Below are positions 6,875-33,408 of a DNA stretch of 33,408 nt, one piece after another. The stretch is taken from contig JBDRFQ010000213.1 in NCBI GenBank assembly GCA_043818685.1, forward strand, positions 1 to 33,408, written 5' to 3'. How positions within the stretch are numbered: position 1 is the first letter of the stretch; every line of letters starts with the position of its first letter. A program made the translations under genes and the position numbers. Origin of the DNA: Candidatus Eiseniibacteriota bacterium. GTDB lineage: Bacteria > Orphanbacterota > Orphanbacteria > Orphanbacterales > Orphanbacteraceae. The notes beneath the pieces are model-generated. The model worked only from the letters and a program-made list of their open reading frames with translations. It was not told the DNA's origin and made no database searches.

Positions 6875-6899
6875 GGGAAAAGGGGGGCGGGGTTTTCGC

Positions 6900-13110: not shown

Positions 13111-13308
13111 CTAGCCGTGCGGCAGGAGCCGCTTCATCTTCTTCTCGTCCCCCCTCGCGAGAATGGAGGACTTGCGCAAACGCCGCTTCCTTTTCGGGGA
13201 CTTCCCCGACAGCAGATGGCTGGCGAACGCGTGGTTGTAGCGGAGCTTCCCCGTGCCGGTCTTGCGGAAGCGCTTGGCCGCGCTCCGATTCGTCTTCATC
13301 TTCGGCAT
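13111..13308 (-). CDS. rpmI: 50S ribosomal protein L35
   Basis: [65 protein letters not shown] is canonical bL35. The true ATG is at 13306-13308; the track ORF starts further upstream. Confidence 0.93.
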
Positions 13309-14181: not shown

Positions 14182-14210
14182 TTGACCTGCCGAAGTTCAC
14201 GTGCTATAAA
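14182..14210 (+). promoter_or_regulatory. Sigma70-type promoter of the enhancer-binding-protein gene (TTGACC-N17-TATAAA)
   Basis: The -35 is at 14182-14187 and the -10 at 14205-14210. The ATG at 14226 is only ~9 nt from the predicted start site, so the leader is very short. Confidence 0.6.
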
Positions 14211-14225
14211 AGGTTCGGGGATCCG

Positions 14226-15725
<1,500 letters not shown>

Positions 15726-18703: not shown

Positions 18704-18841
18704 GTCGCTCCTTCCGGCAGACATCTCTCGCGCGCGGGGTCACCGTGGACGCCGCTCGAACCCCCCAAGGACAGGACAGAAACGCCTCGCCGCGGCGGTC
18801 GCCTACCGGCCCGGGAGAGGCTGTTGAAACGCAGTCACTGC

Positions 18842-18967: not shown

Positions 18968-19000
18968 CAGCGGCAGGGAACGAGCGCACAATCCAGGCTA
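18956..19000 (-). repeat. Copy B of the 45-nt stop-codon-abutting intergenic element
   Basis: The minus strand reads TAGCCTGGATTGTGCGCTCGTTCCCTGCCGCTGCCGCGGATCTCG. The leading TAG is the stop codon of the TPR-like lipoprotein gene. Confidence 0.8.
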
Positions 19001-19615
19001 GTAGATCACGAGATCCGCCGTCAGGTCCTCGATCGCGGCGATCAGCTCCGAGACGAAGGTCGCCGAGTGCGGGTTGATCCGGATCGAGGAGTCGACGACC
19101 ATGATCTGTCCGAGCGCCTCCTCGTATTCGCCGAGCGCGAGGTACGACTGGGCCATCGCCAGCCGGACATCGCGGACATCGATCGTCGGATCCGCCTCGA
19201 GCTCGAAGAGCGGGTCGATTTCGAGAACGGCGCCCCCGGCGAAGACCGCCTGCCGGTACTCGTCGATCCGGTTCAGGATGAGGCACCGCCCCGCCTGGGC
19301 GCCCGCCTCGGTGAACCCCTTCGCGACGGCCGCCTGGAACTCCGCCAGGGCGATGTCGAGCGAGTCGAGCCGGAGATAGCACCAGCCGAGGCCGTTGTGA
19401 CCGTCGCCGAGGCTCCCATCGCTCCGAACCGCATCTTCGAACTTCTCGATCGCACCGGCGTAGTCGGCGTCCGCGAACCGATCCCACCCCGCGGCGAGAA
19501 GCGAAACCACCGGCGGCTCGGTCACGCCTCCCTCGTCTCCACACCCGGAGACGAGGAGAACGACGACGATTCCGGCGAGCGAACACGCCCCCCAGCTGAA
19601 CAATCGTTGCGACAT
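18998..19615 (-). CDS. TPR-like lipoprotein, 205 aa
   Basis: ATG 19613-19615 follows GGGGAGGAAAGGG. The signal peptide has a good lipobox (IVVVLLVSGCG). The body is helical and TPR-like (YAGAIEKFEDAVRSD..., LDIALAEFQAAVAKG, LAMAQSYLALGEYEEALGQI). It lies 34 nt downstream of the giant gene and is probably co-transcribed with it. Confidence 0.8.
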   Translation of the reverse strand: MSQRLFSWGACSLAGIVVVLLVSGCGDEGGVTEPPVVSLLAAGWDRFADADYAGAIEKFEDAVRSDGSLGDGHNGLGWCYLRLDSLDIALAEFQAAVAKGFTEAGAQAGRCLILNRIDEYRQAVFAGGAVLEIDPLFELEADPTIDVRDVRLAMAQSYLALGEYEEALGQIMVVDSSIRINPHSATFVSELIAAIEDLTADLVIY

Positions 19616-19649
19616 GGTTCCCTTTCCTCCCCGGTCGGCCAACACCGGG

Positions 19650-22600
19650 CTAGCGAACCAGAGTCATCTTCCGAGTGGCCGAATGCTCGCCGGCCACGAC
19701 ACGGTAGAAGTAAACGCCGGAGCCGGCGCGCCGTCCCGCGTTGTCGGCCCCGTCCCATGAGTACTCGTAGCGCCCCGGCGGCAGCGTCTTGCTCACCAGG
19801 GTCCGGACTTCCCGCCCCCTCACGTCGAAGATCCGCAGACTCACGTCTTCGCGAGTCGGAAGGTCGAAGGCGATGCGGGTGGCCGGGTTGAACGGGTTCG
19901 GCTTGTTGCCGTGAAGCGCGAACGCCCGAGGCGGGACCTCCTCGCTCTTCACGCCCGAGGAGTAGAACACGGCGTAGGTTCCGCTCTCCTGAATTCCGGC
20001 GACCATCTCGTTGCGGTCCGGATCGATCCGCGACTCGATGTGCGCCCAGCCCTCCGGCCCCCACCGATAGAGGGCGACCCCGGACTTCGCCTTCGCCTCG
20101 AGATCGAGGCCATCGAGTCCCATCGAAACGGCGAGAGGGGCGACCGGGCGGATCTGCGAAACGAGCAGGCGGTACGGGCCGGCGAGCGGCGGTTCCGTGC
20201 TCGCGAACGACTCGGCGTCCAGACCCTCCGTGATCACGACCCCGCTCGCCGCGAACGACCCGGCCGGGGCGTCGAGCCTCAGCCTCCGGTCGACGCTCCA
20301 CATCTTCCCCGGCGTCCCGCGCACGAACTGTCCCGAAGAGAAGTTCCGCCGGACTGTCCCGACCCGGCCGCACAGATCGACCGCGCGGGCTTGGACGATC
20401 AACGTGTCGGCGGTCCGAAGCTCGATGTTCCCGCTCCGGTAGATGGAGAGCCCCGGATCGCCCAGCCCCAGATCGACCTCCGTCGAGTCGAAGCGATACA
20501 CGGTCACCTCGATGATGTTGTCGCCCACGATGATCGACTCGATCTTCGCGTCCGCGTACATCAAGAGGAGCTGCACGGAGTCCCTGGCGATCGCCTCGCT
20601 CGGCACGACGAAGAGGTTCGCCACGTTGGGAATCGTCGAATGCATGACGAACCCAACGCTGAGAACCGGCCTCACGGTGTCCGCGCAAGTCGGATCCAGA
20701 AGCGACGCCACCCCGATGTGTGCGTCGAGCGATGAAAGCGTGTCGCTCCCAGCGTAGAGGAGAGGCGAACACTCCTGATAGCGGAAGAAGTCCGGACTGG
20801 TCCTCTGCAGCGTGGTCACGTCGACCCGCGTCCTGGTGTTGCAGAACTGCGGGTTCTCATGAATGTCCCCGTCCCCCGGATCGAGATTGAGATAGTTGCC
20901 GGCCGTGTTCGCCCACACGTCGTTGTGAGAGAGGATCGGCTTCCCGATCCCCTCGAAAACGGGGGCAAGCGCGATCCCGTGGCCGCCGTTCGACACGACG
21001 GCGTTGTTCCGGATCACCAGATCCCCCTGCGACTCCGACACGGAGACCGCGCCCGCGGAGTTCTGGAAGAAGACGTTGTTGTCGATGGATCCCCCGCCCC
21101 GCGTCCCCTCGACACGGATGCCGCCGTATAACTTCGCGCCGTTCGCCGAGAAGATGTTGCCGCGAACCACCGGATCGAAGGTCTCGAAAAGATACAATCC
21201 TCCGCCGATCCCCGCGGCGTTTCGATAGAAGTAGTTGTCGTAGATCCGCGGCGAGTTCGCCCTCTCCACCGCGATCGCCCCGCCCCAGTTCTTCGAACGG
21301 TTTTCCTCGAACACGTTGTTCCGGATCATCGGCGCCGCTCCGTTCACGCACCGGATCGCGCCGCCGTTCCTGAGAACGGCGGTCCCGTTCATGAACGTGA
21401 ATCCGGAGATCAGCGCGGTCGAATCGATGACGAGCGATGGATCCGTGGCGGCGGCCGAGTCCTGCCTGACCGTCAGGATCGGGCCCACCGCGGAGGGGAG
21501 GAGCACGGACCAGAGGTTGGCCGAGTCCGGGAACGGCTCCTCCAGGACGAACCCCGGATCGAACCCGCCCCGCAGGACGATCGGCTTGGTCAGGACGTAG
21601 TTCCCCTCGTAGCGGGCGCCGGTGGGGAGCGCGCTCCCCGCAACATCGACGGTGTCGCCCGGATTCACGCGGCCGAGGACGCTCGCCAACATTCTCGCCG
21701 AATTGGCCGCGCAGACATACGGGAAGACCGGTGTCCGAATGCGGTTCGGATCGGAAAACACCAGGAAGCGGTGGCCGGGGCGCGTGCACCCCACCCCCTC
21801 CGAACCCCAAACGGTCAGCGCGCAGAGATCGCGAATCGCGCTCTCTCCCGCGTTGATCTTGTCGGCGTCATACAGGATTCCGAAAAGATCCGCACCCGAA
21901 TCGCAGAAGTCGGGCCGAGCGATGAGATGGGTCCCGGGGGTGAGATGAGCGGGGAGGCTGTCCCCTCCAACGTTGCCGTAAAAGAGGTTGTTGCGGACGG
22001 TCGGGTTGGTCTGTCCCTCGTGGAAGAGGCCGCCGCCGCCGCTGGAGTACGCGACGATGCTGTTCTGGAACCTCGGGTTGGCGTCCTCGAGGTGAACCAC
22101 GACCGCCGTATCGACCGAGGCATGGTTGAAGACGTACGTATTCGACCTCAACAACATGAGGTTCGAGTTGAACCCCTCCCGGCCCCTCACGTAGATGCCC
22201 GCGCCGGCTTCCGCCGTGTCCCGCACCATCAGGTTCAGCTCGATCGTCGGCAGCGCGCCCTCATCAACGAAGATCCCTCCCCCGAGGATCGCCATGCAGT
22301 CGCGGATCTTGTTGTCGCGGATGGTGGGCCTCCCGTCCTTCCCGACCCGAATGCCGCCCCCCTCCTCCCCACCTCCCCCCGAGATGGTGAAGCCCTCGAT
22401 CGTGGTCTGCACGAGTCCGACCCCGACCACGCCCGAATCGATCCCGACGGTCGTTCCGGACCCGTCTCCGCGGATCTCGGTTGTGTTGCCGTCGACGTCG
22501 CGCGTGGCGAAATCGGCGGAGTACCCCCCGAGAAGGCGCACGTTCGTCGGCATGCGAATCGCGCCGTCGTAGACGCCGCCCGCGACCCTCACCTCATCGA

Positions 22601-25600
22601 TCGAGTCCGCCGGGTTGGAAAGACCGGCGAGCAGCGCCACGTCCAGCGCGTCCTGAACTCGATGCGCCGCGGCCTCGCGAGTCGCATACGGATAGGAATT
22701 CGATCCGTCGGCGCTCACGTAGTGGACCGGGGTGCTGCAGCCGACCCCCCGCGCCCCGATTCTCCCTCCGTTTCGGCCCGCGAAGACCACGGGGGAGTGA
22801 TCGAAGAGAGTGAAGACGCGACGGCCGCGATCGCAATAGAGCGGGTTCAAAGAGACGTTGCTCAACCCCGTCGTGTCGACGATCCGGAGAAAGTCCTCGT
22901 CGTAGTCGACGTTGTGGCGGAACACGTTGTTGTGGTCGAAGACCGTTCCTGCGATCGCCGCAGAGTCCCCGACGGCGTACAGCCCGTTGCTGTTCCAGGT
23001 GATCAAGTTGTTGTAGATGACCGGGGCGCAGTCCTCGATGAAGATCGCCCACGCGCCGCCGCGGTTGTCGGTGATCGTGTTGCCCGCGATCAGTCCGCCC
23101 GCGCCGGCAAGATGGATGATCCCGCCCTCGTCGTCCGCCGAGTTGATCTGGATCATGTTCCCAACGAGGGACGGGCGGGACTCGTCCAGCGAGAGAAGGA
23201 TGCCGCCCGTCCTGTCTCCCCGGCTCTCCTGGAAGACGTTGTTCGAGAAGAGGGGCGATGCGTCTCCGCGGAGGAGAACCACCGCGCCGGAGTCCGCCCT
23301 TCCGCCGGCGAAGGTGAAGCCGTCGATCAGCGTGGTGCTGTCGACGCCGGCGTCCGCGCGCATGATTCGGGCGGCGGAGTTGGCCGTGACGCGTGACGCG
23401 CCCCTCCCGCGCTCCGCCTCGTTGTAGTTGTTCACGTTGTAGCCGCCCTTGTAGACGACCCCGCCGACCAGATCGAACCTGTCGTTGACCGTGCCGACCG
23501 ACACCTTCACCGTGTCTCCCGCCGACAGGTAGGGGGTGACCCGGGAGATCGTCCTCGAGGCGTTCTGACGAGAGCGGAAGGGGAATCCCGGGGTCGGCGC
23601 GAGAGGATTGACGAGAAACACCTCGTTCTCGCAGACGCACTCTTCGGAGATGGGAAGCGCCCCGATGACCGTGTCGCCCGTCGCGCCCTTGATCGCCGGC
23701 GAGCACGTGCTCAGCGCCCATTCCCCCGAGGCCGGGTCGCAGAAGATCGGATCGGCCTGGCGGTTTCCAGCGGGAAGCGGAGCGCCGGCAAGAACCGCGA
23801 TGTTAGCCGACGCGCCTTCCGCATCGAGGTTCGCGTAGACGTAATTCGTGTCCAGGTCGCGGTCGTTTTCGTTCACCACGAGACCCGCCCGAGCTCCCGA
23901 ATTGTAGGCCACGATGTTCCTGCGGAACCTCATCCGGTCCGTGCTGCCGTACCCCGCGTTCTCCATGTATACACCAGAGGCCGCGGTCGAGGCGGCCGTT
24001 GCCCCGTCCACGCGATTCCCCACGATCGTGTTGTTCACGAGGAACCCCACCGCCTGGATCGTCGCGCTCGTCCCCTTGACGACGACACCGGCGGCCGGGT
24101 GTTCCGGGTGCGCCGCGAAATCGACGCGGTTGTCGCGGATCAAGCAGTTTCGGATCGCGGGACGAGAGCCCTCGCCGACGACCAAGCCGGGGCCGTCCAC
24201 GCCTTCCGAATGCTTTAACACGAAACCGTTCAAACCTCCGGCCGTGGAGAACTGCGGATACCGGCCCCCGGTCCTCACCGTGGGCTCGCCTGCGGCGACC
24301 CCGGAGAGGATGGACGGATAGAGGAAAGGATCTCTTGTGGAGAACGATTCCCCCTCCCAACCGCCCTCGAGGTACTCGCCGCCGGTCAAGACCAGGTTCG
24401 TTTCGTAGAGCCCCTCTGCGAAGCGAACCGTGTCCCCGCGCTCGGCGAGGTCCAGCACCGCCTGGATGTCGGAGGTGGCGTGCTCGGGAGTCTCATAGGG
24501 GAAGACGCCGGCCCCGGAATCCGGGTGAACGTAGTGAGCGAAGTAGTAGCACCCAACGGAGAGCGCCCCGAACGGACGGAGGCCGGGGGCGGCCTCGCCG
24601 AGCCCGCCTTCCTGGTAGACCCTGAAATCGCCGTTCTCGGGGTCGCAGAAGAACGGGTACTTGTGCGTCGTGTCGCTCACGGCCGCCGCGCAGCCCGGGG
24701 CGAACTCGAGATCGTTCAGGTAGAAGTTGGAGCTCTCAACGGAGATGGACCCGTTTCCCTCGCAATCGAAGACAGGAAGTCCCTCGTTGTGCGCGAACAT
24801 CCCGTACCGAACGCTGATCTCGCCGCCGTCGCCGGCGCGAATAAGGGACCCGAAGACCTCGGGGGTCTTGTTCTCGAGAACCGAGAGATGCCGGATCTCG
24901 ACCCGCCCCGAGTCGACATCGAGAAGCGCGCCGTCGCCGCTGACCGCGCCGGTCAGCACGAGGAACGAGACCCGGGTCGTATCGGAGCCGCCCGAGGAGA
25001 AGCGAAGAGCCGGGCTGTCCGTGTCTTCCGGGGCGAACACGGTTCCGTATGCGACCTGGGCCGTCTTCCCCCAGGGCGAGGAAATGAAGAGGTTGTCCCA
25101 CCCGCCCTCGAGCACGATGCCGGGGACCATCTCGATGTTCTGGCGGTACGTCCCGGTCGACAAGCGAATCGTGTCCCCCCGAGAGGCGATGGCGAGGACG
25201 GAGTCGAGAGAGCGCGCGGCGCGGGCCGGCCTGTCGTAAGGGAATACCTCGTTGCCGCTCGCGGAAACGTACTTCGTCCCGGCTCGGCACCCGATTCCCC
25301 ACGCTCCCGGTATCGAGCCGTCGGAAGCAAGACCCTGAATGGGGCTCTCCTGATAGATCCGGTAGTCCGCGTTCAGGATGTCGCAGAAGACCGGGTTCCT
25401 CCCGAAGTAGTTCACGCCGCCCGCGGCACATCCGTTGATATCGCTCCCCACGTTCTCGAAGAAGATGTTGTGCGAGACGACCGGCGCCCCGGCGCTGTCG
25501 CTGCAGGCGATGCCGAAACCCACTGCCGTGGAGTAGATGATGTTGTCGCGAATGATCGGGCTTCCGCCGGCGATGTGGATCGAGCCGCCCCAGGGGGCGG

Positions 25601-26297
25601 ACAGCGTGAGAGCGATCGTGTTGTGCTCGACGCGCGGCGAACCGTTGCCGAGGAAGATCGCGCCACCCCGGCCGGTGGCCCGGCTGTCGACGATGAGGTT
25701 GTATCGGATGGACGGAGATCCGGATCGTAGGAAGAGGGCGCTCCCCTCCCCCGTGGTGTTGTTCGAGCCTCGGACAACGAACCCGGAGAAGACCGTGGCC
25801 GAATCCGGCCCGATGAGTACCCACGAGCTGTCGATCACGGGCGATCCCCCGACATCGGTCGTGTCGTACACCTTCGTGGAATCAACCCTGAACGCGACCG
25901 CCACGCCGGCCTCGAGCGGGGCGATCGTCGTCCAGAGGCTGTCGACGGCGAAGACCCTCTGATTCACCGAAGGAGACCCCGCCGCGGCGGCCCTGTAGTC
26001 CCAGCCGCCCAGAAGCACCACGCCGCGAGGAATCCGGATCCTCTCGACATAGGACCATCCGGACTCGATCACCCGCTCCGCCGGGATGCCGGCCACGAGC
26101 ACCGTGTCTCCGGCCTGTGCGACTCCGAGCGCATCTTGGATCAGGTTGGCCGGCCTCAGGAGGTCCGTGTATGGGGCGGCGGGATTCGTGCCGAAGTATG
26201 AAGCGAGGGCCACATACCGCACCGCGCTCTCGGAGGAGAGGGGAACAAGCAGCATGAGGCCCGCCAAGAAGAAACCGAATCGGTTTCGGCCGTTCAT
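19650..26297 (-). CDS. Giant secreted protein (2215 aa): six tandem right-handed beta-helix units, a beta-sandwich region and a T9SS C-terminal sorting domain
   Basis: ATG 26295-26297 has an AGGAG 11 nt upstream. The signal peptide is MNGRNRFGFFLAGLMLLVPLSSESA. Each of the six units has a cap (e.g. YVSASGNEVFPYDRPARAARSLDSVLAIASRGDTIRLSTGTYRQNI..LEGGW), PbH1-like coils (..IRDNIIY.., ..IRNCLIRDNRV.., ..IRDNKIRD.., ..MIRNNVFEEN..) and a closing P.FCD...(Y/F)R...SP...GC motif. The C-terminus NKPNPFNPATRIAFDLPTREDVSLRIFDVRGREV...WDGADNAGRRAGSGVYFYRVVAGEHSATRKMTLVR is a T9SS type-A-like CTD. Confidence 0.9.
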   Translation of the reverse strand: MNGRNRFGFFLAGLMLLVPLSSESAVRYVALASYFGTNPAAPYTDLLRPANLIQDALGVAQAGDTVLVAGIPAERVIESGWSYVERIRIPRGVVLLGGWDYRAAAAGSPSVNQRVFAVDSLWTTIAPLEAGVAVAFRVDSTKVYDTTDVGGSPVIDSSWVLIGPDSATVFSGFVVRGSNNTTGEGSALFLRSGSPSIRYNLIVDSRATGRGGAIFLGNGSPRVEHNTIALTLSAPWGGSIHIAGGSPIIRDNIIYSTAVGFGIACSDSAGAPVVSHNIFFENVGSDINGCAAGGVNYFGRNPVFCDILNADYRIYQESPIQGLASDGSIPGAWGIGCRAGTKYVSASGNEVFPYDRPARAARSLDSVLAIASRGDTIRLSTGTYRQNIEMVPGIVLEGGWDNLFISSPWGKTAQVAYGTVFAPEDTDSPALRFSSGGSDTTRVSFLVLTGAVSGDGALLDVDSGRVEIRHLSVLENKTPEVFGSLIRAGDGGEISVRYGMFAHNEGLPVFDCEGNGSISVESSNFYLNDLEFAPGCAAAVSDTTHKYPFFCDPENGDFRVYQEGGLGEAAPGLRPFGALSVGCYYFAHYVHPDSGAGVFPYETPEHATSDIQAVLDLAERGDTVRFAEGLYETNLVLTGGEYLEGGWEGESFSTRDPFLYPSILSGVAAGEPTVRTGGRYPQFSTAGGLNGFVLKHSEGVDGPGLVVGEGSRPAIRNCLIRDNRVDFAAHPEHPAAGVVVKGTSATIQAVGFLVNNTIVGNRVDGATAASTAASGVYMENAGYGSTDRMRFRRNIVAYNSGARAGLVVNENDRDLDTNYVYANLDAEGASANIAVLAGAPLPAGNRQADPIFCDPASGEWALSTCSPAIKGATGDTVIGALPISEECVCENEVFLVNPLAPTPGFPFRSRQNASRTISRVTPYLSAGDTVKVSVGTVNDRFDLVGGVVYKGGYNVNNYNEAERGRGASRVTANSAARIMRADAGVDSTTLIDGFTFAGGRADSGAVVLLRGDASPLFSNNVFQESRGDRTGGILLSLDESRPSLVGNMIQINSADDEGGIIHLAGAGGLIAGNTITDNRGGAWAIFIEDCAPVIYNNLITWNSNGLYAVGDSAAIAGTVFDHNNVFRHNVDYDEDFLRIVDTTGLSNVSLNPLYCDRGRRVFTLFDHSPVVFAGRNGGRIGARGVGCSTPVHYVSADGSNSYPYATREAAAHRVQDALDVALLAGLSNPADSIDEVRVAGGVYDGAIRMPTNVRLLGGYSADFATRDVDGNTTEIRGDGSGTTVGIDSGVVGVGLVQTTIEGFTISGGGGEEGGGIRVGKDGRPTIRDNKIRDCMAILGGGIFVDEGALPTIELNLMVRDTAEAGAGIYVRGREGFNSNLMLLRSNTYVFNHASVDTAVVVHLEDANPRFQNSIVAYSSGGGGLFHEGQTNPTVRNNLFYGNVGGDSLPAHLTPGTHLIARPDFCDSGADLFGILYDADKINAGESAIRDLCALTVWGSEGVGCTRPGHRFLVFSDPNRIRTPVFPYVCAANSARMLASVLGRVNPGDTVDVAGSALPTGARYEGNYVLTKPIVLRGGFDPGFVLEEPFPDSANLWSVLLPSAVGPILTVRQDSAAATDPSLVIDSTALISGFTFMNGTAVLRNGGAIRCVNGAAPMIRNNVFEENRSKNWGGAIAVERANSPRIYDNYFYRNAAGIGGGLYLFETFDPVVRGNIFSANGAKLYGGIRVEGTRGGGSIDNNVFFQNSAGAVSVSESQGDLVIRNNAVVSNGGHGIALAPVFEGIGKPILSHNDVWANTAGNYLNLDPGDGDIHENPQFCNTRTRVDVTTLQRTSPDFFRYQECSPLLYAGSDTLSSLDAHIGVASLLDPTCADTVRPVLSVGFVMHSTIPNVANLFVVPSEAIARDSVQLLLMYADAKIESIIVGDNIIEVTVYRFDSTEVDLGLGDPGLSIYRSGNIELRTADTLIVQARAVDLCGRVGTVRRNFSSGQFVRGTPGKMWSVDRRLRLDAPAGSFAASGVVITEGLDAESFASTEPPLAGPYRLLVSQIRPVAPLAVSMGLDGLDLEAKAKSGVALYRWGPEGWAHIESRIDPDRNEMVAGIQESGTYAVFYSSGVKSEEVPPRAFALHGNKPNPFNPATRIAFDLPTREDVSLRIFDVRGREVRTLVSKTLPPGRYEYSWDGADNAGRRAGSGVYFYRVVAGEHSATRKMTLVR

Positions 26298-26568
26298 CGG
26301 ACTGAAAGCTCCTTTCTCCCATCCGGAGGCGGGAATTCCTCCGCAAGAGACAGCCACGGAGTGAAATCCGCGAGGCCTCCCATCGCCTGGACCATGCACC
26401 CGGTCTCGCAGCCGAAGGCTGGAGCGGCCCCGGAGGCCGAACCGGACGGGCGGTTCCCGGAGACGCCTTCTCGCGGCGGCGCTCCCGGAAGCCCGGCGGA
26501 AGGAAGCCTCGTGGACCGCGACATGCGGTTGCCGAGAGCGAGCGCACGGCCCGGGTTGTCGCCGGCAA

Positions 26569-26597
26569 CTTTACCGAGCACTTGGGATATCGTCAAT
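26569..26597 (-). promoter_or_regulatory. Sigma70-type promoter upstream of the giant gene (TTGACG-N17-TAAAGT)
   Basis: The -35 is at 26592-26597 and the -10 at 26569-26574 (minus strand). This predicts a ~265-nt 5' leader. Confidence 0.5.
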
Positions 26598-26640
26598 CGA
26601 GCCTCCTCCGCACGCGCTCCGCGACGCTCCGGGTCGAGCC

Positions 26641-26668
26641 GCGGACGGGCGTCCGCGGACGCCGTCCG
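26641..26668. promoter_or_regulatory. Tandem palindromes built from CGGACG/CGTCCG half-sites (operator-like), ~45-75 bp upstream of the -35 of the giant-gene promoter
   Basis: The sequence GCGGACG-GG-CGTCCGCGGACG-C-CGTCCG carries four alternating half-sites. It includes a perfect 16-nt palindrome, GGCGTCCGCGGACGCC, at 26648-26663. Confidence 0.3.
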
Positions 26669-26905
26669 AACCGGTCGAGCGCGCCGGCCGGGAGCCTCGC
26701 GCTCCGCCCATGTCGGGAGAGGAGATCACCTGAATCGGCTTCGCCGAGATGCGGCCGGATCCCGCGCGTTCCGCGCCGGCGGCGGTCGGGAGGGACCTTT
26801 CGTTGCCTCCCGCGGCCGCAACACGTCGGCGCCGCGGTCCCACCGCCGCCGCGCCCCGGAACGCACAAGCCGGGATGCGGGTTGCCCGGCGCGTCTCTCG
26901 ACCCG

Positions 26906-28336
26906 CTAGCGGACGATGATGAACTTGCCGACCTTCTCTCCCCCCGCCGCCGATCTCACATGGAAGACGTAGACGCCGCTGACGACCAGATCCCCGTCCG
27001 CGTTCCTCATGTCCCAGTTCGAGTTGCCGCCGCCCGACGCCTCAAAATGCTCCCACTCGCGCACCAGGTCCCCGCCGACCGTGAAGACCTTCAGGATCGC
27101 CCGCTGCGGCAGATTGGTGAATTGGATCCTCTCCGACCCCTCTTCCCACGCGGCGTTCCGCTTGTAGGGATTGGGCACGACCGCGACTCTCGAGAGGTCC
27201 TCGGTCCCTTGCGTTCTCGGAAAGACCCGGTCGCTCCGGAGGGAGTCGGTGCTCTCGGAGTGGGTCAGCGTGTCGAAAGCCGTAACGTAGTACACGTACG
27301 GAAAGCCGTTGTGGACTCCTTCCCGGTCGAGATAGCGAATCGGGTCGGCGTGGAGAAAGTCCACGTCGCGGGGATCGCAGAACTCGAACTTGCGCAGAAG
27401 AACGAACCGTAGGGGATTGCTGATCTCGCTCCGATAAACCCGGTAGCCGTCGATCTTCCTCCAGAGAGCGGAGACGACGCCGAGCGTGTCCCCGCCCGTC
27501 GGAACGCTTCCGAGGATCTCCCCGCTCTCCGCCGTGTCCACGGTGATCGTGACCGAGAGACCGAAGCGGAAGGGGACCGTGAACCCGGGGCGGCAGACGG
27601 TGAGCTCCTGCTCGCCTGGGTCCGACGAGGAGACCCGCTCCGTCTCCTCGTCCCCGGTCAGGATGTAGTCCCATGCGAGCTGGATGTCCCGCGACCTCGC
27701 CGGAACCGCGCACTCGTCTTCCTGATTGATCTTCCCCGGCTGGAACCCCACCCAGACCCCCCTCGTGACCAGGATCGTGTCGATTCCCGCCTGGAAATCA
27801 GCGGGAACGAGCAGCGTGTCGACGTCGGGAATGTCTCGCCACTCGAGGGCGAGAGGAAGTCCGGAGACGTTGCCGCTCTCGGTGAGGGAGTCGGTGCCGA
27901 GCGCGATGATCTGTATGCTGTGATCCTCACAGATGTCCGGCTCCCCGCCGGCGTAGGGAATCGCGTTTCCGGTCCAGTAGTTGGGCCGCATCGGGTTGAC
28001 GTTTTGGTGGAGAACAGCGTCCACGAAGGGACCGGTGAACACGGCGGCCGAGTTGGTCGTCCGGAAACGGAGATCCATGTCGCAGTTGCCGATGTATTCG
28101 CCGAGCACCTCCAGAGTGGCGGTCCCCCCCCAGCTCGAATCGACGACCACGAGTCTCGAGATCACGGAATCCGCCGGGTGGTCCCACTCCAGAAGGACCT
28201 CGCCGTCCCCCGGGCGAACAACCACCGGAATCGGAGGAGTCTGGACAACCTGGGCGAACAGGAGGCCTCTCTCCACGAGCAGAAGGAGAGAGAAGGCGAG
28301 AAGAACCGATCGCGATGAAGACCGCCGGCCGCTCAT
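26906..28336 (-). CDS. Secreted protein with FN3-like segments and a T9SS C-terminal sorting domain, 476 aa
   Basis: ATG 28334-28336 gives the signal peptide MSGRRSSSRSVLLAFSLLLLVERGLLFAQ. An FN3-like signature is present (IDGYRVYRSE...VHNGFPYVYYVTAFD). The CTD is VVPNPYKRNAAWEEGSERIQFTNLPQRAILKVFTVGGDLV...DGDLVVSGVYVFHVRSAAGGEKVGKFIIVR. The track start at 28477 (GTG) adds 47 non-signal residues and is rejected. Confidence 0.85.
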   Translation of the reverse strand: MSGRRSSSRSVLLAFSLLLLVERGLLFAQVVQTPPIPVVVRPGDGEVLLEWDHPADSVISRLVVVDSSWGGTATLEVLGEYIGNCDMDLRFRTTNSAAVFTGPFVDAVLHQNVNPMRPNYWTGNAIPYAGGEPDICEDHSIQIIALGTDSLTESGNVSGLPLALEWRDIPDVDTLLVPADFQAGIDTILVTRGVWVGFQPGKINQEDECAVPARSRDIQLAWDYILTGDEETERVSSSDPGEQELTVCRPGFTVPFRFGLSVTITVDTAESGEILGSVPTGGDTLGVVSALWRKIDGYRVYRSEISNPLRFVLLRKFEFCDPRDVDFLHADPIRYLDREGVHNGFPYVYYVTAFDTLTHSESTDSLRSDRVFPRTQGTEDLSRVAVVPNPYKRNAAWEEGSERIQFTNLPQRAILKVFTVGGDLVREWEHFEASGGGNSNWDMRNADGDLVVSGVYVFHVRSAAGGEKVGKFIIVR

Positions 28337-28395
28337 CGGCACGCCCGTCCGCCGCGCCGGCCGCCGCACGGCAACATGACTCCAGATTGACACAT
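28333..28395 (-). CDS. Possible 20-codon upstream ORF (MCQSGVMLPCGGRRGGRACR) translationally coupled to the 476-aa gene
   Basis: AGGAGGG (28407-28413) lies 11 nt upstream of ATG 28393-28395. Its TGA overlaps the downstream ATG (ATGA at 28333-28336). The downstream gene has no good SD of its own. Confidence 0.3.
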   Translation of the reverse strand: MCQSGVMLPCGGRRGGRACR

Positions 28396-28430
28396 AGCGT
28401 TCCAATCCCTCCTGCAAACCGATCCAGGGT

Positions 28431-28439
28431 ATTGTACCA
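28431..28439 (-). promoter_or_regulatory. Extended -10 promoter candidate (TGGTACAAT) for the 476-aa T9SS-cargo gene
   Basis: TG-N-TACAAT is present on the minus strand with no convincing -35. It sits ~10 nt upstream of the AGGAGGG of the uORF. Confidence 0.35.
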
Positions 28440-28624
28440 CGAGCCCGGAACGCGCACCCGCTCCCTTCCGCGGGCACGTTTCGACGCCTGCGAGGCGATC
28501 CTCTCCGATCCGGCCTCGCCTCACGCGCTACGCATCCTCGCGTCGGGACCGCACGCGGTCTGTCCCGGCGGGCACGGCGGGCCGTCCGACTGGGTGCGTG
28601 GGGACGGACGGAAAACCACGGGCC

Positions 28625-30676
28625 CTACTCCCTCATCGTCTCCTTCATATACGTCGTCAAGAGGGTCTCGATCAGCCTCTTTGTTTCACCGGGCTTGAAG
28701 AAGTAATCCGGCATCCCCATGTAAACGACATTACCGCGCACTCCGTCCGAAGGAATGTAGATCGCGACCGCCCGCTTGTTCATCTCCGGTTCGACCGTCA
28801 GCGGCGTCGCCGTGCGACTGAACCCGTAGAGCGGGATCACGCCCATGTCGTCCCGGTACGTGATCCGCTCGCACTTCCAGAGGCCCTTCTTGATTCCCGG
28901 GGAGAGGAAGTTCGTGAAGTTCTTCGACCGGAGAGAGTCCACATGGAGATCGGGGAGCCCGCTGACGAGGGCCTTCGCCCCCCACATGTAGTCGGCGGTC
29001 TCGTCGAGCCACGTGGTTTCGACCGCGCAGTACTCATAGAGAGGATGCGGGAGGGAGTCCTGCAGGAGCGGGTGATACCAGATCAGGGCGCTCCCGCAGC
29101 TCTTCGGGCTGGAATACCGGAAGCATGGGTCCGCCTCGGGGACATACCCCGTGTCGATGAAGTCGTTGTCCGGGAGGAAGTTCCAGTCCGGGAAGAACCC
29201 GCAGATGAGGAGGTTGCCGCCGGCGTCGACGTACGACCAGATCGGGTTGGTCCGGTTGTCGTGCCACTGGGCGACGATCGGGTGCTGGCCGCTCTCTCCC
29301 TCCCAGTCGTCGGTCGGGAGAATGATCGTGGTTGAACGGCTCATCAGCCGGATCGGAGGGTCGTTGACGCGCTCGGTCCTCGCGTCGTAGAAGTCGTGAT
29401 TGAAGTTGATGAGCAGCGTGTCGGTCCAAAAGGACTCGTACTTCTCCGGCTTCGGGTAGAACTCTCCGCGGGCGCTCTCGATGTGGAAGTTGCTGAGCAC
29501 GAGAACCGAGGTCGTGTCGAGATTCCTCGGCCCGGCATAGACCTCAAACGGGAAAGAAGCGGAGACGACCTCCCCCGCCTCGTCCCTCACCCTGGCGTAG
29601 AACGTGTGCGGCCCCCGGAGCGGGACGAAATCCCCCTGGCGCGGGTACCGTGTGTCCAGCAGATCCCAGGCCGTCCAGAGGGGATTGTCGTAGGTGTGAC
29701 CGTAGCCTGTGGGAACGCCGTCGTAGCTCCCGAGGTTCGCCCGCCAGGAGAAGAAAACCCGCGTTCCCTCGAAGATCTGCCCGACGTGCGCGCTCCCCGT
29801 GGTGGCGGTCCCCATCACGTTCGAACGGATGACCACCACTCCGGTCGTCGTGTCCGCCGCCCCCCACTCGCGGTAGTTCACCCCCTCGACCGGGATCTGC
29901 TCGACGGCCCCCGCGTCGTCGATCGATCGGATGAAGAAGAGGTGGCGATTCGCCCCGTCCGCCCCGAACCCGGTTTCCAGGTTCCGGAGCACGACGGCCG
30001 TCGTGTCGGCCCCGACACGGATCCAGCCGAGCCGGTTCCAGATCCTGCGGGTCATCGAGCCGTCCACGTAGCCGTACCTCTCCCGAAGCACCCCCTTGGT
30101 CACGTGGAAGTACTCGTAGGCGGCGACCGCGTTGTCCGGAGCATCCGGATCCGCCCCCTCCCAGTGGATGCTGACCGCCCTTCCGCTCGACGAGTTCATC
30201 CCAGGCCCGCGCGTGATGCGGCTGAAAGGAGCAACGGTGGTGGAGTTGAACGTGAGGTAGGCCGGGCTCGGATCCTTGGCCCCCCGATTGTCCACGGCCC
30301 GCACGAAGAACGTGTGATAGCGGAAGAACCGCTCGACGATCGAGTCCTGCCCGGCCGCTGCCAGGAGCGTATCGAAGAGACAGCACGTGTCGCTCGAGAC
30401 AACGTACGTGGATTCCGTCAGAACCGTGTTGAACCACTCGGCGGTGTCGTCCCACGCGAACTCGTAGGATTCGACAGATCCGTCCACGTCCTCCCCGTAC
30501 CAATTCAGCTTCACGAGATAGACATTCTGGTCGAACGGCTCCGGGCCGCCGGAGATCGTGGTCACGGGGGGAACGTTCGTGTCGGGCGCCGTCGAGTCGA
30601 CGTCGTCGCACGCGCTTCCGGCAAGGAGCAACGCGAGAAGCGCGACCATCAGAACCGTGAATCGAACCGCTTTCAT
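28625..30676 (-). CDS. Exported (probable lipo)protein, 683 aa: three Ig-like modules and a ~300-aa C-terminal domain of unknown function
   Basis: The signal peptide MKAVRFTVLMVALLALLLAGSAC ends in Cys. The N-terminal module PPVTTISGGP..VYLVKLNWYGEDVDGSVESYEFAWDDT..YHTFFVRAVDNRGAKDPSPAYLTF is homologous to the N-terminal module of the upstream gene. The gene starts 22 nt after that gene ends, so the two are probably co-transcribed. Confidence 0.85.
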   Translation of the reverse strand: MKAVRFTVLMVALLALLLAGSACDDVDSTAPDTNVPPVTTISGGPEPFDQNVYLVKLNWYGEDVDGSVESYEFAWDDTAEWFNTVLTESTYVVSSDTCCLFDTLLAAAGQDSIVERFFRYHTFFVRAVDNRGAKDPSPAYLTFNSTTVAPFSRITRGPGMNSSSGRAVSIHWEGADPDAPDNAVAAYEYFHVTKGVLRERYGYVDGSMTRRIWNRLGWIRVGADTTAVVLRNLETGFGADGANRHLFFIRSIDDAGAVEQIPVEGVNYREWGAADTTTGVVVIRSNVMGTATTGSAHVGQIFEGTRVFFSWRANLGSYDGVPTGYGHTYDNPLWTAWDLLDTRYPRQGDFVPLRGPHTFYARVRDEAGEVVSASFPFEVYAGPRNLDTTSVLVLSNFHIESARGEFYPKPEKYESFWTDTLLINFNHDFYDARTERVNDPPIRLMSRSTTIILPTDDWEGESGQHPIVAQWHDNRTNPIWSYVDAGGNLLICGFFPDWNFLPDNDFIDTGYVPEADPCFRYSSPKSCGSALIWYHPLLQDSLPHPLYEYCAVETTWLDETADYMWGAKALVSGLPDLHVDSLRSKNFTNFLSPGIKKGLWKCERITYRDDMGVIPLYGFSRTATPLTVEPEMNKRAVAIYIPSDGVRGNVVYMGMPDYFFKPGETKRLIETLLTTYMKETMRE

Positions 30677-30698
30677 GGGAAGACCCCCGCAATCTGCG

Positions 30699-33020
30699 CT
30701 AGTAGTTCACGAAGAACTGCAGCGTTCTCTGTGGTCCGACCTTGCCGCGCCCGTTTCGATCGATCGGGAGGACCTCGAGGACAACCCGTCCCCTCTTCCC
30801 GTAGGTGGGCAGCCGGACTTCCATGACTCCCTCCGGGGTGCCGTAGAGACCGGAGAGGCTGCGATCATCCGCGAGGAACTCGTTGTCGGCCGTTCGGAAC
30901 TCGTACTCGTAAACCAGCTGGGCCGCGGGGCCGTCCCGATCGACCCCCTGAAACCGTACGGTGACGCTGTCCCGGGCGATCACGGTCTGGTTCACCTCGG
31001 GGAAGAGGAACCGAACGTCCGGGGGATAGTTGATCCGAAACGGGAATCTCGCCCCGCGGCTCTCCCGCCTGCCGTACGAATCGATCCCTCCCACCTCGAG
31101 CACGTAGCCGCTGATGGTCGAGACGAGCGGGCCCGCGACATCGGTGAGCAGGAGGATCTCCTCGAGGCTGTCGGGGGAGACCGCCACGCCGCTGACGCTC
31201 CACCACGACCCGACGACCCGGTCTCCCTGGACCGTGTCTCTGTCGGTGTGGCTCCAACTGAAACTGAGATAAGTCGAATCGGGGAGCAGCGTGTCCCTTG
31301 CGGTCAAGGGGATCGGGCCGGCGTCCGTGTAGGGCCCGGTCACCCAGATGCTGTCCAGGATCGTCTCCGGGTCGAAATTGACCGTGAAGCGGCGCTCGGC
31401 CGTCCCCTCGCCCGCGCTCCAGAGACCGGTCTCGTCCTTCGTTTCGACGGAGAAAACGTACTCGTCCTCGGGAGGAAGATCCCGATAGAAGACGGTGACG
31501 GAGTCAGGGGACACGACCACCGACTGATCGTTGATCCCCTGCAGCTGATAGCGATAGGCCACCACGTACCCCCCGGGGGAGACGCCCTCCCAGCAGAACT
31601 TCACCGAGGAGAACGCCAGCAGCGTCTCCCCCTCGGCCGGGCTCTGCGGGCAGAGGACGACGGACGAGCTCGGGATCACACCGAGCGTCTCCGGATCGGA
31701 GATGTCGAGAAAGGAGACCCCGCGATCGCCGTTGCAGACAAGGAGCGTGTCCTCGCCGCCCACCGCGATTCCCGTCACGATTCCCGAGTATCCGACATGA
31801 TCCTCGAGCACCGGATCGTCCGGGTCCGACACGTCGATCACCCATACCCCGTTGAAGCCGTTGGCGACGTAGAGATGCCGACCCTCCTTGAGGATCTGCT
31901 TCGCGTTCCCCTCGAGAGCGAGCCTCTTCCCCTCGACGACCGAACCGTCCGCGTTGATTCGGAGAACGAGAAGCCCCGCGCCCCCCTCGGCGATGTAGGC
32001 GCGCCCCTCCTCCGGGAAGACCGCGTTGAACGGATCGAAGGTCCGGAACGTGGCCGGGTCTCCCTCGGGAAGTGGCAGGAGAATAGGCTTTTCCCCGTTC
32101 GGGCGGAAGCGAAGCACGGTGAGACCACGCGTGCCCGCGACACCGTAGACGAGGTCTTCGTGGATCGACACGCCGACGAAGTAAAGGCTCGAACGAGGCC
32201 TGTAGCGGGCGAAGAAGACAGGGTCTTCCGGAACGCTCATGTCGAGGACCAGGATGCCGTTCGCTCCGTCCGCGACGAACAGGTAGGGATCCTGGAAGGC
32301 CAGCGCGGCCGCGGCGAACCCGAGGGTCGTGTAGGTCGCGGCGATCATCGGCGAGGCCGGAGAGGAAACATCCAAGACGGTGATCCCCTCGGGTCCGTCG
32401 GCGAGGTAGACGTAGTCGCCGTCCAGCACGATGTCGGAAGCGACCCCCCCGGTAAACGCCGAACCGATTCGCCTGACGTCGGCCGGGTTGCCGATGTCGA
32501 AGACATCAAGACCGTTCACGCCTCCCGCGACATACGCCAGAGATCCCCGCGCGACCACTCGGTTCACCGTGCCGGCGAGAAGGATGGACCGGGGCTGGGC
32601 CTCGGTCTGCGCGAAGAACTCGATCTCCGCGGGACTCGGGTCCTCCTTTCCCTGATTGTCGATCGCCCGAACGAAGAAACGATGATAGCGGCGCTGGACC
32701 TGCGATTGCTCGGTGGCCGTGTTGAACACGAAGACGGAGTCGGTTCGGGTGGTGAAGACCCACATCTCCTCGCGAGAGGTGTCGTCCACCGCGTACTCGA
32801 AGCCCTGGATCACGCCGTCCTCGTCGAAGCCCTTCCAAAAGAGATGGACCCGGTAGAAGGCCGCGGCGCTGTCCACCGGCGCCCCGGTGAGAGCGGTCTC
32901 CGGCTCCTTGTTCTTGTCGGGCTCCGGAATCTCGATCCCCTCGCACCCGAGATGGAGGAGATAAGCGGTCGCGAGAACGAGGGAAAGCACCGTCCAGGAG
33001 AAAACTCGCCTCTTCGTCAT
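30699..33020 (-). CDS. Exported (probable lipo)protein, 773 aa: Ig-like module, LVIVD-repeat beta-propeller and three further Ig-like modules
   Basis: The signal peptide is MTKRRVFSWTVLSLVLATAYLLHLGC. About seven LVIVD-type blades are present (GSLAYVAGGVNGLDVFDIGNPADV, GDYVYLADGPEGITVLDVSSPASP, DPYLFVADGANGILVLDMSVPEDP, GRHLYVANGFNGVWVIDVSDPDDP, EDTLLVCNGDRGVSFLDISDPETL, and others). The C-terminal modules carry a Y_Y_Y-like signature (VVAYRYQLQG..YVFSVETKDETGLWS). Confidence 0.88.
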   Translation of the reverse strand: MTKRRVFSWTVLSLVLATAYLLHLGCEGIEIPEPDKNKEPETALTGAPVDSAAAFYRVHLFWKGFDEDGVIQGFEYAVDDTSREEMWVFTTRTDSVFVFNTATEQSQVQRRYHRFFVRAIDNQGKEDPSPAEIEFFAQTEAQPRSILLAGTVNRVVARGSLAYVAGGVNGLDVFDIGNPADVRRIGSAFTGGVASDIVLDGDYVYLADGPEGITVLDVSSPASPMIAATYTTLGFAAAALAFQDPYLFVADGANGILVLDMSVPEDPVFFARYRPRSSLYFVGVSIHEDLVYGVAGTRGLTVLRFRPNGEKPILLPLPEGDPATFRTFDPFNAVFPEEGRAYIAEGGAGLLVLRINADGSVVEGKRLALEGNAKQILKEGRHLYVANGFNGVWVIDVSDPDDPVLEDHVGYSGIVTGIAVGGEDTLLVCNGDRGVSFLDISDPETLGVIPSSSVVLCPQSPAEGETLLAFSSVKFCWEGVSPGGYVVAYRYQLQGINDQSVVVSPDSVTVFYRDLPPEDEYVFSVETKDETGLWSAGEGTAERRFTVNFDPETILDSIWVTGPYTDAGPIPLTARDTLLPDSTYLSFSWSHTDRDTVQGDRVVGSWWSVSGVAVSPDSLEEILLLTDVAGPLVSTISGYVLEVGGIDSYGRRESRGARFPFRINYPPDVRFLFPEVNQTVIARDSVTVRFQGVDRDGPAAQLVYEYEFRTADNEFLADDRSLSGLYGTPEGVMEVRLPTYGKRGRVVLEVLPIDRNGRGKVGPQRTLQFFVNY

Positions 33021-33096
33021 GCCAGGGACTCCGATCGTGTAACCTCAAGGGAAAATCGAGGTTATACCGTACCCGCCGCCCGATCTACGTGCCGCG

Positions 33097-33126
33097 ACTA
33101 TACCAAACGGTTTCCGGGAGTGTCAA
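33097..33126 (-). promoter_or_regulatory. Strong sigma70 promoter with extended -10 (TTGACA-N18-TGgTATAGT) for the two-lipoprotein operon
   Basis: A perfect -35 TTGACA is at 33121-33126, the -10 TATAGT is at 33097-33102, and the TG motif is at 33104-33105 (minus strand). The leader is ~70 nt and contains the hairpin at 33040-33064. Confidence 0.6.
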
Positions 33127-33187
33127 CCCAAATGGCCGGCCGGCGTGCGGCTCGAACCTCAAGCGGGGCAATCGGATGCGGGGAGCT

Positions 33188-33229
33188 GAAAGAAGAGAAG
33201 ATCGCCGGGGCCCGAGAGCCCCGGCGATC
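33188..33229 (-). terminator. Intrinsic terminator of the upstream T9SS-cargo gene
   Basis: The minus strand reads GATCGCCGGGGC-TCTCGG-GCCCCGGCGATC, a 12-bp perfect stem. It is followed by TTCTCTTCTTTC and starts 33 nt after the stop codon. Confidence 0.65.
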
Positions 33230-33261
33230 CGTGATGAAGCGGAAGCTGTCCGGCGCACGAG

Positions 33262-33408
33262 CTACCGGAGCAGCACCATCTTCTTCGTGGCGGTGTCCTT
33301 CTCCGCGTCGAGGCGGTAGAAGTACACGCCGCTGGCCGCGTCGCGTCCGGCGTTGTCCTTGCCGTTCCACGTCGCGCTGTGCGCTCCCTCGTCCAGAACG
33401 CCGTCCAC
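33262..33408 (-). CDS. C-terminal 48 codons of another T9SS cargo protein. The gene starts beyond the right edge.
   Basis: Reverse-strand translation reads VDGVLDEGAHSATWNGKDNAGRDAASGVYFYRLDAEKDTATKKMVLLR-TAG. This is the same CTD signature (WxGxDxxGxxxxSGVYFYR...K(M)xLxR) as the giant protein. Confidence 0.8.
   Translation of the reverse strand: MDGVLDEGAHSATWNGKDNAGRDAASGVYFYRLDAEKDTATKKMVLLR

Follow-up and report, generated by a model that had tools for sequence, protein, structure and literature searches.

What is built by the run of exported-protein genes that fills the right-hand part of this stretch of DNA? The stretch (33,408 nucleotides [nt] of contig JBDRFQ010000213.1, from a Candidatus Eiseniibacteriota bacterium; hereafter the window) was described in an initial annotation as carrying consecutive same-strand genes with export signals, a candidate for an undescribed cell-surface system. 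The arrangement stands: from 33408 down to 18998, the long open reading frames (ORFs) with a coding-type bias in G+C content at the third position all lie on the minus strand, and the exported-protein cluster (18998-33408) comprises five complete genes (g1 to g5) and the C-terminal tail of a sixth (g0). Our answer, which is tentative and to which we give rather less than even credence, is that the region is part of a cluster building a cell-surface assembly that depends on type IX-like secretion and that has a binding or scaffold role, by a mechanism that we infer. The genes of the cluster, with the gene for pyruvate phosphate dikinase (ppdk) that follows it, are listed below (CTD, C-terminal domain; T9SS, type IX secretion system; FN3, fibronectin type III; Ig, immunoglobulin; TPR, tetratricopeptide repeat).

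33262..33408, minus strand: g0 tail, the last 48 codons and the stop of a ~1160-aa secreted CTD protein, the remainder of which lies beyond the window.
30699..33020, minus strand: g1, 773 aa, a lipoprotein with an LVIVD propeller.
28625..30676, minus strand: g2, 683 aa, a lipoprotein with tandem FN3/Ig-like domains and an alpha/beta head.
26906..28336, minus strand: g3, 476 aa, a secreted all-beta protein with an FN3-like domain and a PorZ/PorU-class CTD at its end.
19650..26297, minus strand: g4, 2215 aa, a six-module beta-helix protein with an Ig-like region and a type-A T9SS CTD.
18998..19615, minus strand: g5, 205 aa, a TPR lipoprotein starting 34 nt past g4.
15866..18724, minus strand: ppdk, whose ortholog in locus L003 has PPDK Pfam domains.

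A scan of one genome per species gave 78 loci, on which all window proteins were searched by tblastn. Gene order is kept in at least eight metagenome-assembled genomes (MAGs) at 30-82% identity (loci L001, L003, L005, L007, L008, L010, L011, and L012), and the random adjacency that the initial annotation had named as one way for its proposal to fail is refuted. Contigs with relatives at 58%, 50%, and 34% identity carry the ~1160-aa CTD protein, g1, g2, g3, g4, and g5, and tblastn recovers the g1-g4 order in L007 (the closest, with 82% identity to g2), L008, L010, L011, and L012. The g5 gene comes directly after g4 in L003, L005, L007, L008, L010, and L011 (the L012 contig stops inside g4), and in L003 the cluster continues into ppdk. 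Insertions and duplications occur within this order: L001 (10001-14333; Eisenbacteria MAG GCA_016930695.1) has a tandem duplicate of g2 (678 and 682 aa, the second copy being 44% identical to the window g2); L005 (8601-10004 and 13556-14575), which is the most distant orthologous locus, carries an extra gene, for Asparaginase_II, ahead of the giant gene; and L003 (4366-7446) has an opposite-strand gene encoding a 1026-aa MFS, spermine-synthase, and TPR protein between g0 and g1.

Two genes are conserved just upstream of g0, outside the window (L001 1-2964, L005 493-4522, and L007 219-3800): one encodes a PD40/TolB-like lipoprotein with CGDD after its lipobox, and the other, transcribed divergently, encodes a membrane glycosyltransferase-like protein (PMT_2/DUF8201, GT-C-type), a hint that the surface proteins may be glycosylated. 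The term "island" used in the initial annotation is not sustained. On these comparisons, the cluster is a vertically inherited, operon-like neighborhood beside ppdk, with no mobility genes. A mobile or recently acquired island was rejected, the block being syntenic with housekeeping genes and having no integrase, transposase, or flanking tRNA.

A looser core is found in loci labeled Krumholzibacteriota, Latescibacterota/Latescibacteria, and "uncultured Fibrobacteraceae," with the order g1-like lipoprotein, g2-like lipoprotein, g3-type FN3+CTD protein, and ppdk, preceded in some by a type-A CTD protein (L033, L042, L066, and L082 have such an additional g0-type CTD protein ahead of the first lipoprotein). 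Locus L021 reads recO, glyQ, glyS, a 743-aa lipoprotein, an 809-aa lipoprotein, a BNR/Sortilin-propeller protein (~800-900 aa, with a PorZ-like CTD), ppdk, and DUF4388; in L082, an aldehyde dehydrogenase ORF stands ahead of ppdk. The ppdk gene is a conserved flanking gene, outside the function of the cluster, and marks its downstream edge in several phyla, lying within 9 kb of a g2-like gene in 15 of the 78 loci. A g3-like FN3+CTD gene lies within 7 kb of a g2-like gene, on the same strand, in 53 of the 78. Orthologs of g4 are present in only 5 of these loci, plus L001, L003, and L005, and because so few carry one, g4 and g5 are read as an Eisenbacteria-specific addition between g3 and ppdk.

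In Krumholzibacteriia and other MAGs, the same kinds of genes form alternating arrays of CTD protein, lipoprotein, CTD protein, and lipoprotein (L019, L024, L025, L031, and L069; ~6-17 kb in each), whose members are CTD proteins of ~850 aa with BNR/Sortilin propellers and FN3 lipoproteins of ~760 aa; the gaps from CTD gene to lipoprotein gene are ~60-90 nt. A Latescibacterota chromosome (L070, 5947-17351) has four g2-like lipoprotein genes in a row. Long-spaced matches in some loci were considered as g2-g3 gene fusions (Rosetta stone) and rejected, as they represent separate alternating genes. Of the evidence that lipoprotein and CTD protein are functionally linked, this repeated pairing is the strongest, and the partnership appears, from gene neighborhoods, to be one of FN3-type lipoproteins (g1/g2-like) with PorZ-type-CTD proteins (g3-like) and not with the beta-helix giant. 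The suggestion in the initial annotation that lipoproteins act as a scaffold for a T9SS-delivered beta-helix fiber is partly supported, in that the lipoproteins and CTD proteins form a conserved cluster, but the recurrent partner of the lipoproteins appears to be g3-like, g4 being lineage specific. Literature searches (Eisenbacteria with T9SS or secretion, LVIVD, and T9SS in sister phyla) found no description or publication of the cluster, which agrees with its having been called undescribed.

Both the signal peptide and the CTD first ascribed to g3 are present (the former, identified by reading the sequence, is of type I, with a hydrophobic stretch and then an Ala-rich cleavage region), but the CTD is of the PorZ/PorU class, unlike those of g0 and g4, and with no match to TIGR04183 or PF18962, g3 falls outside the definition of a type-A CTD. 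Its sole NCBIfam match is local, aligning its C-terminal ~100 aa with the CTD of PorZ (E 4.4e-10). The PorZ model (NF052228) calls for a full-length match, with two seven-bladed beta-propellers and an uncleaved CTD, and g3 fails it, reaching 38.6 bits against a cutoff of 260 over model positions 664-757 only. Ten g3-like proteins of ~500-760 aa gave CTD-level matches only against NCBIfam. The AlphaFold2 (AF2) model of g3 is all-beta (mean predicted local distance difference test [pLDDT] score, 85.5); a PDB profile search returned only the CTDs of PorZ (5m11, E 0.005) and PorU (6za2, E 0.013), and Foldseek returned PorU and PorZ CTDs among generic FN3/Ig arrays. In Porphyromonas gingivalis, PorZ retains its CTD, and an outer-membrane barrel belonging to the PorU-PorV-PorQ-PorZ attachment complex anchors it at the surface (PMC8545088). 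Although g3 is not itself a PorZ, it may, judged by this domain, be anchored by its CTD as PorZ is.

Seven proteins of ~600-760 aa from other lineages have CTDs closer to that of g3 (36-41% identity, E 1e-18 to 1e-22) than is the CTD of g4 (32% identity, E 1e-4). For the four of these seven whose loci were inspected, the gene is flanked in every case by a TonB-dependent-receptor-like gene (CarboxypepD_reg) on one side and a PorV/PorQ-family gene on the other. By sequence matches and neighbors, there are two CTD classes, the cargo type (type A) of g0 and g4 and the g3 class, which is found beside PorV/PorQ barrels. One of the four PorV/PorQ-linked loci, L088, belongs to an Eisenbacteria MAG in which a g3 ortholog is also encoded (ABIK65_03345, ABIK65_10010). 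The PorV/PorQ-family protein of this locus (12286-13263) scores 196.8 bits with PorV_fam (NF033709; cutoff, 90), so at least one T9SS-type barrel is present in the lineage. The matches to CTD models and this PorV/PorQ-family gene in a related MAG make it plausible that the products of the cluster depend on a T9SS.

The four assemblies share a triad (L085 6800-13379, L086 7302-13171, L087 7155-13028, and L088 7260-17616) consisting of a TonB-dependent-receptor-like outer-membrane protein (CarboxypepD_reg), a ~700-aa FN3/PorZ-class-CTD protein, and a barrel of the PorV/PorQ family; genes for GWxTD, ExbB, two ExbD proteins, and TonB come after the triad in L088. From its gene content, the triad looks like an undescribed uptake device in which a T9SS-anchored binding protein would replace SusD.

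The products of g1, g2, and g5 have the hallmark of lipoproteins, a signal peptide closing in a lipobox Cys (read from the sequence), and the initial descriptions of all three hold. The g1 signal peptide ends in LHLGC, and although HLGC is non-canonical at -3, the Cys is kept in orthologs; that of g2 ends in LLAGSAC, with Cys23 invariant in 19 homologs; g5 has the canonical lipobox LVSGC, and its Cys recurs in orthologs. The residues after the Cys are acidic in each, with CDD in g2 (30605-30610), CGDE in g5 (19537-19545), and CEG in g1 (32934-32942). The CDD of g2 is conserved in Eisenbacteria-type orthologs, and acidic residues after the Cys resemble the surface-export signal of Bacteroidota lipoproteins. 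The propeller claimed for g1 is supported by LVIVD (PF08309), matched over three stretches at 89.2 bits (cutoff, 20.2; 1e-25), with a weak match to Y_Y_Y, and the domain order is an N-terminal FN3-like domain, the LVIVD beta-propeller, and C-terminal Ig-like domains. Residues 1-150 of g1 are 32-39% identical to the N termini of g2 orthologs, indicating that the N-terminal FN3-like domains are paralogous. Orthologs of g1 occur in seven loci (40-78% identity), and the propeller is missing from those of L005 (467 aa) and L012. An exact-sequence lookup found no identical g1 sequence on record, and g1 has no relative among solved structures. The TPR-like character of g5 is borne out by TPR_2 (33.2 bits; cutoff, 27) and TPR_19 (30.9 bits; cutoff, 25).

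The g2 protein has no Pfam or NCBIfam match, and only 25 relatives are detectable among 5.8 billion clustered proteins, the named ones all being hypothetical proteins from MAGs of Eisenbacteria, "Latescibacterota," or "Gemmatimonadetes." Its AF2 model (mean pLDDT, 78) has tandem beta-sandwiches (residues ~35-385), followed by an alpha/beta domain (~385-683) with beta-alpha-beta secondary structure, which corresponds to the Ig-like stalks and unknown domain of the initial description. Whole-chain Foldseek with g2 returned FN3/Ig arrays only, and the whole-chain searches with g2 and g3, in which generic arrays prevailed (insulin receptor, contactins, and RTX adhesins; TM-scores, 0.10-0.17), are uninformative on function. 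A profile of the head domain alone matches 520 of 1.84 billion representatives (E<=1e-3), and Pfam searches of 19 family members at E<=1 gave nothing consistent and no direct match for the head. Against PDB, g2 had a weak match to 2gk3 (E 0.58) that was gone with the head-domain-only profile, which gave just noise (E>1). Two remote members of the head-domain family, P0226 and P0232, have weak DUF4159 matches (1e-6 to 5e-8) on the matched stretch, where P0226 also matches ABC_transp_aux (6e-5) and P0232 also matches GLMA_2nd (2e-6). The head is fused to an M28 peptidase, fn3, and Por_Secre_tail in one remote relative and to a C25 peptidase in another. These matches suggest that the g2 head probably has a class-I glutamine-amidotransferase-like fold (DUF4159/GldG-like), and with no recognizable catalytic signature it is putatively non-catalytic.

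The largest product, g4, was initially described as a six-unit beta-helix protein with a T9SS CTD, and it is one. After a type-I-like signal peptide (read from the sequence), it matches Beta_helix (PF13229) over four stretches at 137 bits (cutoff, 25.9; 5.6e-40); NosD and DUF1565 also exceed their Pfam cutoffs, Disaggr_assoc is at its cutoff, and DUF5123 has no significant stretch. Six module-end motifs (P.[FY]C[DN]...GC) occur at residues 302, 548, 850, 1152, 1462, and 1816, and their positions are kept in orthologs of 30-44% identity. The modules, defined solely by these motifs and the Pfam stretches, have diverged, as a self-BLAST found no significant module-to-module match, and g4 has no sequence relative in PDB. 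By TIGR04183 (25.3 bits; cutoff, 23) and FlgD_ig (40.4 bits; cutoff, 27; 3e-10), g4 ends in a type-A sorting domain, PF18962 giving only 17.2 bits against a cutoff of 27. Right-handed beta-helix proteins (pectate-lyase fold, CASH/NosD type) share with g4 its family matches and the usual Cys-containing cap in which modules end; they differ from g4, in which six diverged modules are joined in one chain with a T9SS CTD.

The tail of g0, initially read as that of a third CTD protein, is 67% identical to the C terminus of an L001 protein (3385-6882; 1165 aa) that passes the cutoffs for both Por_Secre_tail (PF18962; 32.5, cutoff 27) and TIGR04183 (38.4, cutoff 23). The tail itself falls under the cutoffs for FlgD_ig (25.6 bits) and CHU_C (23.1 bits) because the g0 sequence is incomplete at the window edge. 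By inspection of their sequences, the g0 orthologs have Sec-type signal peptides (hydrophobic at the N terminus and rich in Ala in the cleavage region), and the CTDs of g4 and the g0 orthologs are 44-55% identical to one another; the g0 ortholog has no relative among solved structures. The initial view that no enzyme could be named in the cluster survives the comparisons made with Pfam, NCBIfam, PDB profiles, and Foldseek: none of the proteins matched a hydrolase, lyase, or protease family, and beyond generic folds they match no characterized enzyme family or solved structure. The other outcome that the initial annotation had said would count against its proposal, a confident match of each protein to a well-characterized family, thus did not arise.

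Together, these features are consistent with the following arrangement. Lipid anchors would fix the g1 and g2 lipoproteins in the outer membrane, and FN3-type stalks would hold the heads (a propeller in g1, a non-catalytic amidotransferase-like domain in g2) off the membrane. The g3 protein would be exported, would stay docked on a PorV/PorQ-family barrel via its uncleaved PorZ-like CTD, and would pair with the neighboring lipoprotein; g0 and the six-module g4 would be ordinary T9SS cargo retained at this platform, and g5 a TPR adaptor. The whole assembly would bind an extracellular polymer or surface, which the beta-helix modules may cut.

Several points weigh against this arrangement. SprA/Sov, PorK/L/M/N, PorU, and PorV are not among the window proteins, and the genomes of the lineage were not searched for translocon, motor, or sortase; the initial observation that the cluster itself includes no T9SS machinery and no regulator held among the scanned window proteins. 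Because g3 is without the propellers of PorZ and of its ~700-850-aa relatives, its likeness to such component-type proteins concerns the FN3+CTD part only. By the +2 rule of enterobacteria, an Asp at +2/+3 after the lipobox Cys would mean that a lipoprotein stays in the inner membrane. The support for an amidotransferase-like fold of the g2 head is transitive and weak. Finally, the beta-helix fold is common among polysaccharide lyases and hydrolases, so g4 may have an enzymatic role after all.

Three features of the noncoding DNA bear on how the cluster might be transcribed.

33199..33230, minus strand: intrinsic terminator of g0, with a 14-bp stem, 10 G-C pairs, and then a T-rich tail.
33097..33126, minus strand: sigma-70-type promoter, TTGACA-18-TATAGT, 11/12 matches, with a TG extended -10.
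26298..26905, minus strand: g3-g4 spacer, 608 nt, unusually long and G+C rich, with the g4 ribosome-binding site AAGGAG inside.

The terminator and promoter had been taken to delimit the cluster. Both are real: the terminator stem is kept in L007, the closest relative, and the promoter lies in a block of ~40 nt that is identical in L007 while the flanking intergenic DNA has diverged. They form an internal operon boundary and not an edge, however, because the conserved block continues upstream beyond the window. The promoter is taken as that of a g1-g2, possibly longer, transcription unit. Internal promoters had also been claimed before g3 and g4, but promoter-like sites within the cluster are at chance level (2 found versus 1.3 expected), and the one before g4 (26596-26568) is weak (9/12 matches). 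The g3-g4 spacer has no Rfam family and no convincing promoter. A search for sigma-54 (-24/-12) promoters, made because a sigma-54 activator is encoded nearby, gave 3 matches versus 4.2 expected, none in intergenic regions of the cluster, and the idea of such promoters here was rejected. That activator (~14200-15725, plus strand), with a receiver-like N terminus, a GAFTGA motif, and a C-terminal Fis-type helix-turn-helix, is convergent with ppdk.

The left half of the window is occupied by housekeeping genes (tRNA-His/Arg/Pro, Ham1, amidase, SmpB, tRNA-Leu, Mur ligase, and LolA). An Rfam scan of the whole window found four tRNAs, at 1.4-1.7 kb and 6.9 kb, and nothing else. The LolA-domain protein, an outer-membrane lipoprotein carrier, is encoded at 11734-13089 (minus strand), ~6 kb from the cluster, among the Mur ligase and amidases. 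The window ppdk product (952 aa) has an isoelectric point (pI) of 9.3 and a Lys/Ala-rich, histone-H1-like stretch in its C-terminal ~35 residues (15866-15970; …KGGKKASSKAPKKAAKKTAKRKAARR), which is missing from the PPDK genes of L021 and L082. All five complete cluster products (g1-g5) are acidic, with pIs of 4.1-5.1. The G+C content of the window is ~67%, ranging from 0.64 to 0.67 in the cluster and from 0.66 to 0.70 in the left half.

The modules of g4 could instead be lyase or hydrolase domains of a polymer-degrading locus, an analog of the polysaccharide-utilization loci (PULs) of Bacteroidota, in which the lipoproteins and g3 would bind substrate for a TonB-dependent transporter encoded elsewhere; we regard this as somewhat unlikely. 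The families matched by g4 (Beta_helix, DUF5123, Disaggr_assoc, and DUF1565) are of the pectate-lyase fold, and the match is at the level of the fold, with no catalytic family of beta-helix lyases or hydrolases among them. The g3-like proteins of other phyla have BNR/Sortilin propellers, with a sub-threshold match to "F510_1955 family glycosylhydrolase" (80 bits versus 175); g3 paralogs lie beside TonB-dependent-receptor-like genes, with ExbB/ExbD/TonB also present in L088; the multi-copy tandem arrays of g2/g3-like pairs are typical of nutrient-capture families; and the g2 head has its remote peptidase fusions. However, no carbohydrate-active enzyme (CAZyme), peptidase, or TonB-receptor family occurs among the window proteins, no catalytic motif was identified, and the Eisenbacteria cluster is single, strongly syntenic, and next to housekeeping genes, in contrast to variable, regulator-linked PULs. 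The resemblance to Bacteroidota PULs (SusC/SusD, SusE/F, and enzymes) lies in the clustering of Ig-like surface lipoproteins with secreted, carbohydrate-enzyme-like beta-helix folds. The differences are that the cluster has no SusC/SusD, no recognizable CAZyme family, and no regulator and that delivery to the surface would use CTDs, not lipoprotein export alone. Matches to TonB_dep_Rec, Plug, and SusD were absent from the cluster proteins and from the scanned neighbors. Because it has neither a SusC/SusD pair nor a CAZyme family, the cluster is not a PUL.

The retention of g4 length and six-module architecture down to 30% identity would also suit a coat, as would the occurrence of g4 as a single copy in each genome locus, beside core genes. 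T9SS-delivered S-layers are known in Tannerella, and g4 (and g0) might be abundant T9SS-delivered coat proteins, possibly glycosylated by the upstream PMT_2-like enzyme, whose gene is conserved with that of the PD40 lipoprotein in L001, L005, and L007; the lipoproteins would then be anchors. An S-layer-like coat is nonetheless an unlikely explanation, as no known S-layer protein is similar (the only match, of g3 to 7ptp by Foldseek, is generic, with a TM-score of 0.15) and the g1-g3 core is present without g4 in other phyla.

The CTD class of g3 and the conservation of the core over several phyla beside housekeeping genes raise the further prospect that g1-g3 are not cargo but lineage-specific secretion or attachment components, analogs of PorZ/PorQ-associated factors in a variant T9SS. 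Similarity to the P. gingivalis attachment complex is real in two respects: the beta-sandwich CTD of g3 best matches those of PorZ and PorU, and proteins with g3-type FN3+CTD are encoded beside PorV/PorQ-family barrels. Against this, no propeller or C25 peptidase domain was detected in g3, its matches to the PorZ and PorU models are local and far under cutoffs (38.6 bits versus 260 for PorZ, on the CTD only), no PorV/PorQ gene lies in the window, and the FN3-type lipoprotein partners have no counterpart in that complex. Moreover, the multi-copy tandem g2/g3-like genes of Krumholzibacteriia are unlike machinery genes, and we consider an accessory module quite improbable. Chance adjacency of unrelated exported proteins, or a recent genomic island, finds a trace of favor in the slightly lower G+C content of the cluster but is effectively refuted by a gene order shared among at least eight MAGs and, as a looser core, among other phyla, by the lack of an integrase, transposase, or flanking tRNA, and by the conserved promoter and terminator.

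Returning to the T9SS-dependent surface assembly that we favor, we note that the component folds (FN3/Ig, beta-propeller, beta-helix, TPR, and CTD) are ordinary and that clusters of T9SS-type surface proteins are already known. In gliding Bacteroidota, cargo and cognate partners form cassettes, as in SprB with SprF/PorP-like proteins. The cluster resembles these in the recurrence of a large T9SS-secreted surface protein by a smaller envelope protein and in having a giant repetitive protein (g4). It differs in that the partner is a lipoprotein (FN3 with an amidotransferase-like head, or TPR) and not a PorP/SprF beta-barrel, in that its CTDs are type-A/FlgD_ig-like or PorZ-like and not type B, and in having no motility-gene evidence. 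What is new is that the architecture is conserved, that it extends, beside ppdk, to several candidate phyla, that lipoprotein and CTD-protein genes alternate as a cassette, and that g3 is placed in the PorV-neighbor CTD class.

A bolder generalization, which we put forward as speculative and doubtful, is that FN3-stalk lipoproteins with an amidotransferase-like head (the g1/g2 family) and PorZ-class-CTD proteins (the g3 family) constitute an unrecognized and widespread cassette of two components for surface display in candidate phyla of the FCB type (Eisenbacteria, Krumholzibacteriota, Latescibacterota, and Fibrobacterota-like), with the lipoprotein serving as the cognate anchor or receptor for a T9SS-exported, uncleaved-CTD protein. 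Such a cassette would represent a third route for retaining T9SS substrates, besides attachment to A-LPS (anionic lipopolysaccharide) and PorP/SprF partners, and the triad of TonB receptor, CTD protein, and PorV would then be a SusC/SusD-like uptake device.

If the pairing of lipoprotein and CTD protein is not true, the locus would be another conserved surface-protein cluster without known function in a MAG lineage. If it is true, it would show how type IX-secreted surface proteins are organized outside Bacteroidota; it would give names and a testable role to two families of "hypothetical" proteins, those with the g2 head domain (520 cluster representatives, E<=1e-3) and those combining FN3 with a PorZ-class CTD; and it would provide studies of the envelope in several uncultured phyla with a conserved, readily recognized marker locus beside ppdk.

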